From contig NW_020847681.1 of NCBI RefSeq assembly GCF_003704095.1, forward strand, positions 310,001 to 374,000: DNA of 64,000 nt, written 5' to 3'. Origin of the DNA: Pocillopora damicornis (lineage: Eukaryota). This document shows positions 28,881 to 43,210 of this stretch, one piece after another. A program made the translations under genes and the position numbers. A model generated the notes under the pieces. That model was not told the DNA's origin, did not search any database, and saw only the letters and a program-made list of their open reading frames with translations. Each line of letters begins with the position of its first letter. Within the stretch, counting starts at the first letter, position 1.

Positions 28881-30652
28881 GGTTGTGACGCTACCGACCC
28901 CCGAGGCCATTTGTAAGTCGATTTCCCTGCTTTCTCTGTTCTGACTCGTTGAAGGAAAGAAACTTTCGTAGATTTTGTCTTTGAAATGTTGTAGAATTTT
29001 AAATCTTCAAAAAGCGTAGAGAGCCTGGTATGGAAAGGTGGCGATGTAAATTTGAAGCACAGCCTTACTCAAAGGTCATTTGAACGAGTGATCATGACCA
29101 TATTTGGTGCAATGATGGAAAAGTGGATTGAAGGAAGATCCTTAATCACCTCACGCTAGATGATTATAGCAATATATGAATCCTCGACCAATCATGTCTA
29201 TAATCACCGCAGCAAATACTTAAGCTACATAATGGGTATATTGTTGCTGTTAATTATAGAAACTCATACAAACAAATGCCTCTCAAAATCACGTTATAAT
29301 GATTCCCAGAATATCAAAAATTTAATTCTCAGAAAAGGTCACTCAATACCATATCCTGACTTCAATCTAAAAATTATTTTTAGTGTATCTAGAAATTTAC
29401 ATCTACTCGGTTTTGGCCCTTTTTTTCCCTAAAATCTACACACCTATATCATTCACCAATAAGTTTAACCTTTTGTGGTCATGTGTGTGTGAGGTCATGG
29501 GACATTTTAGTCGATTTATAAACAAAACAGTATACTGATATTACTCTTTTTACTCTGTTGCTGATTTAATGGGAAATTTTTTATACTCAAGAGAATATGT
29601 CAAGAGAACATGCCTGTAAATTACTGTACCCTATTTCTCTGAGAAAAAAAATGAATATCTTGGCTTGATATGGTGTAAAATATCCCTTCTAATAGATTTA
29701 AGGTTTGTTTCATCAGAATAATTATTATGAACCTTTTTGTTTCTTATTTATCAGAGTGTTACAAAATACTAGTTTTAAATATTAGAATTATGTTTACCAC
29801 TCAATGTTTTGGGATATTCTGCCATACAATCAATCTGCCATTCTGTCATTCTACAGAATAGGGTCACCTATTTCCCATAAACTGTCTTACAACTGGTCTT
29901 TGTTAAGTGATGTTACTCTAAGTTGCCCCTTCTTGACTCAAAGATAAATTATAACCAAGAAAATACATGAAAAACCTTTCTCCTGGTGCAAAAAACTGGA
30001 TTAAAGTGGCATAATCAACATGGTCATGTGTACATGCAAGTGGGTGACTGTAGAAGTATTTGGAAAATGGGGCTTCATGCTTATAGACACCATTTAGAGA
30101 CACAATTTTGAGACAGTTTCAATAGCGTATTTCTGGCTCATTTTGATAGCTTATTTCTGGCTCATCAGCTCATTGACTCAACTTTGGTGAATTGGAAAAA
30201 AATGGTCATATTTTTGTATCAAAGTAAAGTGGAGAAGATGACAGTAGTTGAATTAAACATGGAAGTGAATTGTAGTGGACACAGAGGTTACCCAAAACTT
30301 AAGCTCATCACAAACACAACAGAGGTCCAGAAAAAACAATACTTTTAAAAAGAATGACACAAGCTATGCCTCTCCAAAGAGTTCATGGAAAAAACTAAAC
30401 CTAAAGTCTTAAAGAATTAGGAGAGAAAAATGTAAGAGGAAAGTCAAGACGATTCTCACATTCGAGATGCTGAGAGAAAATGAGGTTAGATCACTCTGGT
30501 TAAATTTTCTGTATTTCTTAACTGAAGTGGAAGGTAATCTTCAGGCAACTGATGAAGAAGCCATCAATATTTACAAGGAAACGCTCAGAGAGAAACTACA
30601 GAACTTCAATAAAAATAAAAGAATTTGGAGGTTTGAGAAAGTTATATCACTA

Positions 30653-31118
30653 CAGGGCGTGAAATTAACTTTTTTTCTGATAGCCACTTGACTCCTAAAT
30701 TCTTCAAAGTGGTAGCCAATTCAAAAAAAGTTGGTCGCCATTTTCAAAGACAAACAAAATCTTTCTTTACGCTGTCAGCGTTTTAGATAGACCCTCCAAA
30801 ATTAAGTTAGGGAAAAGATCAGTAACGTGCTACTAAGTGGACATTAGGATGAATGATATACAACGTTCAGGCTCATCTAAATCCAAGATGGCGTCTAGTT
30901 ATCGATCGAGATGCATGTGCTACGTTTTGGAAACAAACTTAAAGTGAAAGTTTGCCGCGGATTTATCTTTGCAAATCTTTTTAATTCACTATATCTCTTG
31001 GTAAGGTTATGATGAAACGTTCTAGTCGCCAATTTGGCGACTAACTTTCAGGATTTGGTTGCCAAAGTGAAAAATTTAGGCGCATTGGCGCCTGTATTAG
31101 GCGCAATTTCACGCCCTG
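30653..31118. mobile_element. Non-autonomous TIR DNA transposon, 466 bp, 5-bp TSD (hAT5-like)
   Basis: 14-bp TIRs CAGGGCGTGAAATT / AATTTCACGCCCTG, flanked by CACTA at 30648-30652 and 31119-31123. Removing it restores the PolB frame. Confidence 0.88.
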
Positions 31119-32561
31119 CACTAGATATACATTTCACAGTGTATGATCCACTGAGAGGTTCATCTTACATTGAACTCCCAAAATCTTTTCAAAGGAAGAA
31201 GGCAATTGTAAACATAAAAAATGAAGATGATGACTGCTTCAAGTGGTGCATCACAAGAGCTCTTGGCAGTTTACCCTGAGTTTGAATCATTCACAAAACT
31301 GATTGACATCTGGAAGCTGAGGAGTGAGGAGAGCCTCGCCAATAAATATCAGAGGCATAAACCATATGATGTCTATCATCACATTATCAGCTTCACTGAT
31401 AATATACATAAACAAGATCCTGTCATTTACATAGCAAGAGTGAAGATGATGATGTTGCTCAGATCTTTGATGAAATGGTTGAAGATAATATCTATAAGAT
31501 TTATAGAGAATTCAATTTGAAAGGACATGATCTTCACAGATAAAGATAGGTGTGATTTTAACATGGCAAAACGCCAGGAAAGTGTCCTGGAGCAGCTCAC
31601 AACAAATGCAACCTAAAATTTGAGAAGCTNNNNNNNNNNNNNNNNNNNNNNNNNNNNNNNNNNNNNNNNNNNNNNNNNNNNNNNNNNNNNNNNNNNNNNN
31701 NNNNNNNNNNNNNNNNNNNNNNNNNNNNNACCGACAGTCGGCCGACAGGTTTTTTGGGGAGCTCTTCTTCACAATTACCGAAAGAGTTTGACATAAAGAC
31801 TTTAGGTGATTATCATGACTTTATCTCAAATCAGACGTTCTCCTACTGATAGAAGTATTTGAAGAGTTCAAAACATGTGTCACAAGACACACGAATTATA
31901 AACTTGACCCTGCATGGTATTACACTCCTCCTGGATTGTCTTGGGATGCAGCATTGAAGGTGACACATCAAGGTCTCTATTCACTCGCTGATCATGACGA
32001 GCTGCTGATGATTGAAAAAGGAATTAGGGGAGGTGTTTCAATGATCTCCGATTGGTATGGGAAAGCAAATAGTCCATATATCGGTGAAGATCACGATCCA
32101 AGAAAGCCAAAAAAATTAATTCATCACTTATCTTGACATGAATAATTTGTAAGCATGGGCAATGTCTGGAGATCAATGCCTTGCATCTTCAATGTGGACC
32201 TTGAATATTCCAAAGAGCTTCATGATAATCATAACAACTGTCCACTTGCCCCTTAAAGGTTGATGATCAATAGGGTTGAAAGGCTTATCCCAAATCTGTA
32301 TGATAAGGAGAGATACATAGTTCATCACAAGAGCCTCAAGTAGTTTCTTGATCTCAGGTTGAAGATCAAAAAGATTCACAGAAGAATATGTTTAAAGAAA
32401 TACATTGAGCTCAACATAAATATCCCTGTGCAAAAGCAGAGAATGAATTTAGGAAAGATTTCTCCTCCTTGAGGAATAACTCCGTCATCAGAAAAACTGG
32501 AAAACATCAGAGTCCACAATTGCAGATTAGTCATTACACTTGCAGCAAAGCCAAATTTTAT

Positions 32562-40775: not shown

Positions 40776-41764
40776 AACTTTTACTACAATTATTGCACAT
40801 GGTTTACTGAAAAGTATTCGATCATTGACTTCATAAACTCATCTTGTAATGTCAGAGAAATCCCTCACTAGAAACTGAAGTCCACAAGTGTCAAAAAAAT
40901 GTTCTAAGATCATGAGTAGAAGGCTCTCAACAAAAATTTTTCAAAGCTATATTTCATGTTGTAACATAACTCTGTGCTAGGAAGCCAGCAACTATGGATC
41001 TATGGGACCAGTGTAACCAAGTAACTGAGGAGTAGAAGAGTATCTCAAGAACAGGATATTTTTTTGTCTTTTTATGTTTTATCGAGCTGCTGCAGATCTG
41101 CAGGACCACTGTAACTAAGTAGCCTGCTTTTACAACAAAACTTAGTAACTGTGGATCTACAGAACTGGCATAGCTAAGTAGCCTGCTTGCTGAATTTAGT
41201 TAATCTGGATTGTATTTACATCATCCTAAATGAATATCCTCAGAATTTTAGTCGATATTTAATCTTAAAAAAACTCATTAATTTTGGTCTCTGTTTGAAT
41301 TCAAGACATTGCATTTCAAAAACTTACATTACTCAACCTTGTGCAGTATCACGTTGATTTCGATATCTGAGATTGACCTATTTTCCAAGCTTTTTAAATG
41401 AGTTTGCTGATTGAGAGAAGCTTTGCTTCACTGAGTTAGACAGTTTTCTCATGTTTTGAAATCTTTCTCTCAAGTCTCTAGCTACAAACAGAAGCCCCAG
41501 TTGAAAGAAAAGTTAAAAAAAGGCTGAAACTAATTCACCATTTGATGACAAGAAAGAGGAAGTGATTCCACATGTATTTGATGTTGCTTGAGCTATGAAT
41601 TTAGCCCTTCCATATTTTTTCATGACTTGTCCTTTTGATCAATCTTGTTATCAAGTTCCTTCTGACAATCACAGATATTCTTCAATCAGAAATACTCTGC
41701 CCCCACCATAGGGAGGAAAGGATAGAACAGCATAGCCCTTGGGAGAACATTTTGAGCAGACATT

Positions 41765-41943
41765 TTATTTATTTCTAATTATCTCTATTTCAGACCTCAT
41801 TGGGAAACCATTGAAATCAGTGATCTCCCCAGTCTCATCAGTCATGAAAATTCTCATTTCTGGGATATGATTCCTGCATGTAATGAGAAATCATTTGCAT
41901 CAGCAATCATTGTAAGTACAACCATTTTTTTTCTCAATATTAT
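41765..41943 (-). pseudogene. Penton/minor capsid-like C-terminal fragment, copy B
   Basis: CRNHIPEMRIFMTDETGEITDFNGFPMRSEIEIIRNK*. Confidence 0.5.
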
Positions 41944-43210
41944 TCATGATGAAAATACTGCTGATAATTAATAAAGGAAATAGAGGTGTTTCAATGATCT
42001 CAAATCTATATGGGAAAGCAAATAATCCATATATGGGTGAAGATCATGATCCAAGCAAGCCAACAAAATTAATCCATCACTTATCTCGATGCGCATGATT
42101 TGTACACATGGGCAATGTCTAAGCCTCCTCCTGTTGGAGGTTTTGAGTGGATTACTGATTTTGACAACTGGAGATCAACACCTTGCATCCTCAAGGTGGA
42201 TCTTGAATATTGAAAAGAGCTTCATGATGATCATAATAACTATCCACTTGCCCCTCAGAGGTTGCTGGTGAATAGAGTTGAAAAGCTTGTGCCAAACCTG
42301 TATGATAAGGAGAGATACATAGTTCCTTATAAGAACTTCAAGCAGTATCTTGTTCAGAGTTTGAAGATGCAAAAGAGTCACAGAGAAAAAAGTTTCAAAG
42401 AAAAGTCTTGGTTGAAGAAATGTATTGGGCTCAACACGAATACCTCTGCAAAAGCAAAGATTGAATTCAAGAATGATTTCTCCAAGTTGAGGAGTAACTT
42501 TGCCATTGGAAAGACTTGGAAAACATCAGAAATTGCATGGATCTGAGTTTAGTCAACAATCGCAAATTAGTTATTACACTTGCAGCAAAGCCAAATTTTA
42601 AGCATTGCATAATGTTTGTTTTAAACCTTGTCAAAATCCATACAAAGAAGACAAAACTTGTGTTTGATGAGCCGGTATATTGCAGAATGAGTATCCTGAT
42701 ATCAGCAAGAGCTTTATATATAATTTCCAATACAACTACATTGAACCAAAATATGGAGATGGTGCAAAGCTTCTCTTCACAGACATTGATAGCCTTTGCT
42801 ATTAGATCAAAACTGAAGACTTCTTCAAGGATATAGGCAGTAATGTTGAAGATAAGTTTGATGCAAGTAACTACCCCATAGATCACTGCTCTGGCATTCC
42901 AAGTGGCTGCAACAAGAAAGTGGTGGGAATGATGAAATATGAAGCTGTGGAAAGATCATCATAGAGTTCATTGGATTGAGGCCGAAACTTTACATTTACA
43001 AAATGCATGAGGGAAAGGAAGAGTGCAAAGGAGTGAAGAAGAATGCAATAAAGAAGATAACAGAACACCAACATTTCAAAGTGTCTTTTCACTGGAAACC
43101 CACAAATGAATGAGAGGAATGTGATTTGAAGCCGTAAACATGAAATATTTACTTACGCTAACCCCAACAAGATATCTGAGTGCAAATGATGACAAAAGAG
43201 TCTTTCAATA
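41944..43210 (+). pseudogene. PolB C-terminal half, copy C (reaches the natural C-terminus)
   Basis: YLDAHDLYTWAMS; VEKLVPNLYDKERYIV; KLRSNFAIGKT (motif B); LSANDDKRV. Confidence 0.85.

Follow-up and report, generated by a model that had tools for sequence, protein, structure and literature searches.

The window analysed here, a stretch of 64,000 nucleotides (G000:C4316:310001-374000, where G000 is a 234-Mb genome of about 35% G+C), contains decayed genes of a Polinton/adintovirus-type element in a head-to-tail array, and the question raised by this array is whether it was built by a virus or by the chromosome that carries it. An earlier note on this DNA had offered two origins, a defective-interfering-like genome that was concatemerised, or an old tandem duplication. 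We find that a dead Polinton was very probably copied in tandem twice by host chromosomal duplication, at times far apart, an origin supported by unequal copy ages, shared lesions and a locus-specific junction.

Layout and reality of the array

Gene order was obtained by mapping open frames of relatives onto the window. On the plus strand, the family B DNA polymerase (PolB) is followed by an ATPase, the small open reading frames (ORFs) F3, F9, F17 and F5a, and an integrase; F20 and a penton follow on the minus strand, and then PolB again, which bears out the order first read from the letters. PolB is present in three copies, at about 30200-33044 (A), 36630-37770 (B) and 41943-43214 (C), and the integrase in two (unit 1, 34974-35377; unit 2, 40325-40767). 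The penton/PolB junction (J1) is repeated at about 36628 and 41944, with a period of 5316. Self-BLAST aligned 34978-35898 with 40315-41304 (79%, 1002 columns), 36038-37773 with 41328-43133 (83.6%, 1824 columns) and 33145-33354 with 40098-40308 (84%), and placed the third PolB at 32002-33044 (71-82%, with gaps). The copy numbers, junction and period of the earlier note are thus confirmed, and its picture of one repeated ~5.3-kb unit holds for the period; copy A, however, includes the N-terminal half of PolB, so the units are not identical. The junction had also been described as lying in mid-penton and in fact lies just upstream of that gene, whose start codons are at 36613 and 41925.

Units 1 and 2 differ at 339 of 2707 sites (12.5%), and divergence over 8 segments showed no significant unevenness (p 0.12), as one duplication event predicts. 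Read depth over both integrase-unique stretches was about that of the flanks in 4/4 runs (4 studies), and listed contigs covered the stretch of unit 1 (about 34950-36189) from 3/4 runs with 3-7 other letters and that of unit 2 (about 40100-41478) from 4/4 runs with 1-8 other letters. In addition, P0005, a protein record of other source, starts with letters derived from PolB B and continues as the window ATPase, so this adjacency exists outside this assembly.

An assembly in which two haplotypes or unrelated loci were stitched together would be favoured by the N gaps in the locus, at 31630 and 33045, and by the lack of any contig bridging either copy of J1 among the matches listed (32 listed; 22,277 further pieces). 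Against it stand the distance between the units, far beyond that between the window and the listed contigs (below 2% in most, about 4% at most), the depth of both units in every run, and the independent record P0005; the run nearest the window may be the window's own source, and three other runs still stand. We therefore give such an artefact, already judged unlikely in the earlier note, almost no credence: the repeat is genuine and present in all four runs examined.

Shared lesions, copy ages and junctions

Lesions were read from a frameshift-aware alignment to P0140, a 1284-aa relative to which the PolB copies are 58-60% identical over aligned codons. In copies A, B and C alike, 4 bp are inserted near residue 885 and 1 bp is deleted at residue 1095, changes missing in 6/6 outgroups; a stop at residue 933 is found in B and C only; and in both integrases codon 25 is a stop, 73 central codons are deleted and the sequence is truncated near 223. 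The earlier claim of independent stops and insertions does not hold for all of them: it fails for the two PolB frameshifts, the PolB stop, and the integrase stop and deletion.

The PolB tree grouped A+B+C at 100/100 and B+C at 100/99, and Kimura two-parameter (K2P) distances on the tree alignment were 0.14 for B-C and 0.27-0.29 for A vs B/C. Across 514 columns, left after removal of those next to gaps or lacking a clear outgroup state, derived sites were shared 20 times by B+C, 4 times by A+B and twice by A+C (p 7e-6); private sites numbered 40 in A, 26 in B and 27 in C, a roughly clock-like pattern of branches. A is the older split, and B and C are sister copies of later origin. These ages are relative; the younger duplication is far older than the differences among present samples. 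Among single-change codons, 23/32 were synonymous on the stem and 23/66 after the first duplication (Fisher p 0.001), and changes after duplication are near neutral, unlike those of the viral stem. Taken together, the shared lesions, the mostly synonymous stem and the later neutral change indicate a lineage that was selected as a virus, then broken, then copied twice. A hybrid of A and C formed by unequal crossing-over was also considered for PolB B and was not supported, B being close to C up to 37773.

The junctions were compared with G000. J1 was spanned by 2/18 matches, both of them in the window, and the PolB/ATPase junction (J2) by itself alone among 19 matches; the junction, whose recurrence at other loci the earlier note had proposed to look for, was thus found at this locus only, among the best candidates, which are all that these searches score. 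This is the outcome that the note had named as favouring simple tandem duplication over a mobile defective unit.

Ages and junctions bear together on the defective-interfering-like origin, in which a deleted 5.3-kb genome would have been multiplied by a helper polymerase and integrated as one head-to-tail array. The absence of the capsid module from the unit, the head-to-tail repeats and the single junction J1 are what such a genome would give, and since a passenger can do without a functional PolB, the shared frameshifts would not by themselves rule it out. One integration predicts equal ages, however, which the excess of derived sites in B+C contradicts. Copy A retains the N-terminal half of PolB, the unit lacks a terminal repeat that could serve as origin or as substrate for the integrase, the integrase centre is missing in both units, and J2 is a further junction unlike J1. 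In linear DNA viruses, defective-interfering genomes and concatemers generally retain their origins or packaging ends, and all copies have the same age. The array resembles such genomes in its deleted structural genes and repeated novel junction, and differs in that its ends are gone and its copies have two ages. With disabling lesions shared as well, we consider this reading very unlikely.

At J2, PolB B ends at residue ~1241 and the ATPase start follows directly, the two sides overlapping by ~4 bp (an apparent 8-bp microhomology was reduced to this length on comparison with natural ATPase starts). The simplest reading is that J2 would be the break of the second duplication, which would have copied the DNA from the ATPase start to PolB residue 1241 with the older J1 inside; a later deletion in copy B would look alike and may be the cause. 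The second-duplication model predicts a first ATPase block inside the 33045 gap. Two protein records, P0008 and P0013, are 75-76% identical to the window ATPase and cluster with it at 100/99; neither turned up in the assembly. The matches of single-copy-depth contigs from all four runs are confined to short patches at 37789/37887, 38525/38802 and 39520/39939. Both observations fit the prediction of a hidden ATPase block, and neither reads the gap.

J1 could have formed as a duplication break following an inversion, or by deletion of part of a dimer in which the major capsid protein (MCP) gene stood before PolB. The latter leads to a mixed origin, in which element machinery acting in trans on the damaged element (by local re-insertion or as a head-to-tail dimer) would have made the first copy, deletions would have cut it down, and only the second duplication would be chromosomal. 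MCP stands directly before PolB on the same strand at two G000 places (C2390 and C3713), and a dimer of that order gives integrase followed by reversed F20 and penton; in L081, two copies of a related element follow each other head to tail, their integrases 81.6% alike; and the mostly synonymous stem places death shortly before the first duplication. On the other side, neither a terminal repeat nor a target-site duplication came to light between the units, three further large deletions are required, and flanking non-viral DNA was co-duplicated at C3786, pointing to a host process at that locus. We judge the mixed origin unlikely. Its most specific form, in which Polinton machinery in trans re-inserted a crippled, capsid-less genome beside its parent, is likewise improbable; if true, coral polintoviruses would carry defective passengers, and clustered relics (e.g. 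the integrase fragments of C3505) would mark pile-up loci, possibly with a small-RNA memory.

Two host duplications after death therefore remain the preferred reading. Among 11 G000 loci that were self-compared, 3 (C3505, C3786 and C3542) have direct duplications of relic DNA at 77-87%, and that of C3786 includes about 2.6 kb without a viral hit. The proposed course of events would begin with integration of a Polinton-type element (step 1) and its death, in which integrase and penton would have suffered deletions and a rearrangement would have placed the F20-penton block reversed behind the integrase (step 2). A first duplication would then have put a second PolB behind the penton (step 3), a later tandem duplication would have copied ~5.3 kb, beginning at the ATPase start and ending at PolB residue ~1241, through a short-microhomology join (step 4), and neutral decay would have followed (step 5). 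The array is most likely without function now.

Several points weigh against this course. Pairwise alignment narrows the age gap (B-C 0.11-0.15, A vs B/C 0.18-0.23, unit 1 vs unit 2 0.09-0.17), and the first event is datable from a PolB segment of ~0.9 kb alone. The synonymous share after duplication (35%) is slightly above the neutral expectation of 0.24-0.26 (binomial p 0.09). The uniqueness of the junctions is a lower-bound statement, and the key block in the 33045 gap is unread, so the second tandem step is one that we infer. The reversed F20-penton block could have come about by one inversion or by a differently ordered dimer with deletions, and the integrase tail expected upstream after a simple inversion was not found.

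Among the duplicated relics elsewhere in G000, L178-L179 (G000:C3786:42293-59997) is a tandem duplication with a period of ~11.7 kb that comprises an MCP-F4-penton relic and flanking non-viral DNA (77-87%). At L166, L186 and L167 (G000:C3505:84000-112000), integrase fragments and their flanks are repeated about tenfold (75-87%) inside a larger repeat ~17 kb apart, a more extreme case than the window array.

The element, its relatives and the features of the window

Comparison with relatives supports the array as an endogenous Polinton/adintovirus-type element, broken in every recognisable gene; the identity proposed before is upheld by the A32 ATPase, the rve integrase of intact relatives, the penton fold and a relative with inverted repeats. 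The window ATPase matched PF04665 above the cut-off (E 1.4e-7). Pfam gave no direct match for the window PolB or integrase pieces; the integrases matched intact relatives to E 1e-34, and these relatives matched PF00665 under the curated cut-off (E 1.5e-5 and 1.9e-6). P0140 had no PF03175 match and no PDB match by sequence search, and PF03175 was missing from 5/5 PolB relatives by Pfam. Family B polymerase motifs are visible in the window PolB reads, and PolB would be protein-primed. The penton of an intact relative was modelled at a predicted local distance difference test score (pLDDT) of 96, with the mavirus penton 6g41 as its best PDB match (E 2e-9), and both units contain a minor-capsid (single jelly-roll, penton) remnant.

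Profile scans found no double jelly-roll major capsid in the window, and no terminal inverted repeats or target-site duplication were seen there by self-BLAST and a closer scan of 24001-50000, in agreement with the earlier note; so is the lack of a visible protease, no protease family (adenain included) having appeared in the window pieces scanned at Pfam sensitivity. Major capsid genes of relatives gave 71 matches in G000, 0 of them on the window's contig. The MCP of a relative matched Capsid_N at E 0.007 (Atlas neighbours carry Capsid_N in 10-14% of members), and a single-sequence fold model of a relative's MCP had a pLDDT of 31. We read the major capsid as lost by deletion and the locus as a relic, no complete member of its family.

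Relatives were found through the ATPase (112 proteins and 80 metagenome loci), and none came from viral contigs scanned with the ATPase or an alignment of it. A stony coral and further marine invertebrates are the sources of the named protein relatives, and the sequencing runs that contain the stretch are marine; the host is presumably a coral-type animal. L058 is a complete metagenome element of 15,057 bp with 176-bp terminal inverted repeats (98%) and the genes F20, penton, F4, a coiled-coil gene, MCP, ATPase, small ORFs, integrase and PolB. Its gene families are like those of the window; unlike the window, it has PolB convergent at the right end and retains MCP, F4 and the coiled-coil gene. 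The type-B fragment L036 has the window order from PolB through ATPase, F3, F9, F17 and F5a to integrase. In the pair of L081 (a metagenome contig, positions 1-14267), the first PolB is internally deleted.

The G000 scan covered 60 stretches from 27 contigs, and relics of the family lie on at least 27 other contigs of the host genome. Their commonest order is MCP, coil, F4, penton, F20, PolB, ATPase, small ORFs, integrase, and in 9 places the penton precedes PolB on the same strand; a reversed F20-penton block behind a truncated integrase was found nowhere else among the 60 stretches. The best DNA matches to the array in these stretches are 69-82% identical. None of the 60 contains an open frame >448 aa, and no MCP or integrase match in G000 is both full-length and stop-free; to judge from a candidate-based search, the family seems to have died out in this assembly. 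At least three gene orders, differing by block inversions, occur in the family (G000 loci, L036-L115): PolB convergent at the end, penton-F20 before PolB, and MCP before PolB. The relative at C1014 has inverted repeats of about 420 bp at 84%; this shortened element (L160, G000:C1014:170596-177177) includes the MCP 3' end in its inverted repeats, so an MCP tail stands at both ends, and C1365 has the same arrangement of integrase followed by MCP tail.

Table 1. Coordinates of the array and of the sequences inserted in it (window positions; residues of PolB are those of P0140).
Feature	Position	Strand	Remarks
PolB copy A, N-terminal half included, broken	30195..33044	+	Enters assembly gap at ~residue 1154 of 1284-aa relative P0140
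High-copy short insertion in PolB A, terminal inverted repeats, 5-bp flanking repeat	30653..31118	.	Depth ~1000x flank
High-copy short insertion, terminal inverted repeats, TTAA site, PolB A only	32562..32762	.	204-bp insertion in alignment
Assembly gap, 100 N	33045..33144	.	Would conceal PolB A tail and first ATPase-to-small-ORF block
F5a tail, small ORF, unit 1	33145..33345	+	84% to 40098-40308
Dispersed repeat ~1.33 kb with nested element ~298 bp (34231-34529), between F5a and integrase, unit 1 only	33352..34977	.	
rve integrase, unit 1	34974..35377	+	Lacks 73 central codons and everything past ~residue 223
Stretch X, ~520 bp, short internal repeats, unit 1	35378..35898	.	
F20, conserved ORF, broken, unit 1	35882..36440	-	In relatives comes after penton
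Penton (minor capsid) remnant, unit 1: start codon, ~10 codons, internal deletion, last ~40 codons	36452..36613	-	
Junction J1: penton-upstream sequence to mid-PolB (~residue 840)	36620..36645	.	
PolB copy B, ~residues 840-1241, broken	36630..37770	+	
Junction J2: PolB directly onto ATPase start, ~4 bp microhomology	37764..37773	.	Probable break of second duplication
A32-type packaging ATPase, two stops	37766..38350	+	PF04665 E 1.4e-7
Four small conserved ORFs F3, F9, F17, F5a	38369..40298	+	Same order as in relatives
rve integrase, unit 2	40325..40767	+	Central deletion, truncation and one stop as in unit 1
Stretch X, unit 2	40768..41304	.	K2P 0.157 to unit 1
F20, broken, unit 2	41310..41755	-	
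Penton remnant, unit 2	41767..41925	-	Internal deletion as in unit 1
Junction J1, second copy	41930..41960	.	
PolB copy C, ~residues 840-1270	41943..43214	+	Ends in non-viral DNA

The PolB A start was placed by its match to the PolB starts of G000 C464 and C1527, and PolB C extends to residue ~1270 vs ~1241 in PolB B. The left copy alone later received three insertions, one with a further nested element. We take the insertion at 30653..31118 to be a hAT-like miniature inverted-repeat transposable element (MITE) and that at 32562..32762 to be a piggyBac-like MITE. The dispersed repeat at 33352-34977 is unclassified, with dozens of copies at 72-82% (102 matches from the best 40 of 406 candidates in the G000 search), a small hairpin near its right end and no Pfam match; a contig joint at 34231-34530 marks its nested MITE. 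Stretch X matched solely its twin copy, without a convincing Pfam match, the weakest hint elsewhere being E 0.05 to a C2390 spacer.

Outside the array, positions 25982-28634 to its left hold fragments (weak tblastn, E 8e-7), presumably of a retrotransposon polymerase region, and a 228-aa open frame without a Pfam match. On the minus strand at 10255-12738, two long open frames rich in serine and proline (217 and 352 aa) are probably host-gene exons and had no Pfam match. Non-LTR retroelement-like fragments lie at 53191-53835 (zf-RVT, E 1.7e-9) and at 45703-47559, the latter with an ALKBH8_N-type tail (E 5e-8, 45703-46008). Six RNA runs, three of them labelled coral metagenome, contain 5-17% of the words of the window, which high-copy or conserved parts could explain, and give no evidence of expression.

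Comparison with known systems

The array is most likely a degraded coral-type polintovirus, an ordinary and common sort of fossil, and no defective virus genome. As it stands it is of little importance, degraded polintoviruses being common and tandem duplication pervasive in coral genomes. Its use is as a clean worked example of how a viral concatemer can be told from duplication after death, by shared lesions, unequal ages and neutral change. Two findings on related elements may have greater value than the array itself: a complete relative without a detectable protease, and a G000 copy with a capsid-gene end in its inverted repeats.

Nothing was found on tandem or concatemeric Polinton arrays in corals in the literature covered, most subscription papers and supplements lying outside its scope. 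The main text of PMC11131425 has 'tandem' only in one reference, and that of PMC8502044 mentions no tandem array ('tandem' 0, 'concatem' 0); the available text of PMC11161782 and of PMC8547959 added nothing on the known kinds. Tandem duplication itself is described as pervasive in coral genomes in the available text of Noel et al. (PMC10236652).

Stony corals are rich in polintoviruses, with many copies per genome, according to the main text of Stephens et al. 2024 (PMC11131425), and the window resembles them as an integrated Polinton-type element with PolB, integrase, ATPase and penton. That survey demanded MCP, minor capsid and ATPase together, and the MCP-less relic of the window would fail it; relics of this kind escape surveys that require MCP.

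Decayed adintovirus relics in animal germlines have been described (Starrett et al. 2021, PMC8502044, main text). The Beta adintoviruses of that account resemble the window relatives in a divergent non-PF03175 PolB, an rve integrase, an FtsK/A32 ATPase, hexon and penton; a possible likeness to Beta lies in the absence of PF03175 (5/5 relatives). The Beta class is further marked by a PolB with an N-terminal OTU domain and by its own virion accessory genes, among which GasderminX might be the counterpart of F20. An adintovirus has an adenain protease, whereas in the complete relative (L058:1-15057) none was found by Pfam in the 39/65 open frames scanned, and L058 possibly represents a protease-less polintovirus lineage.

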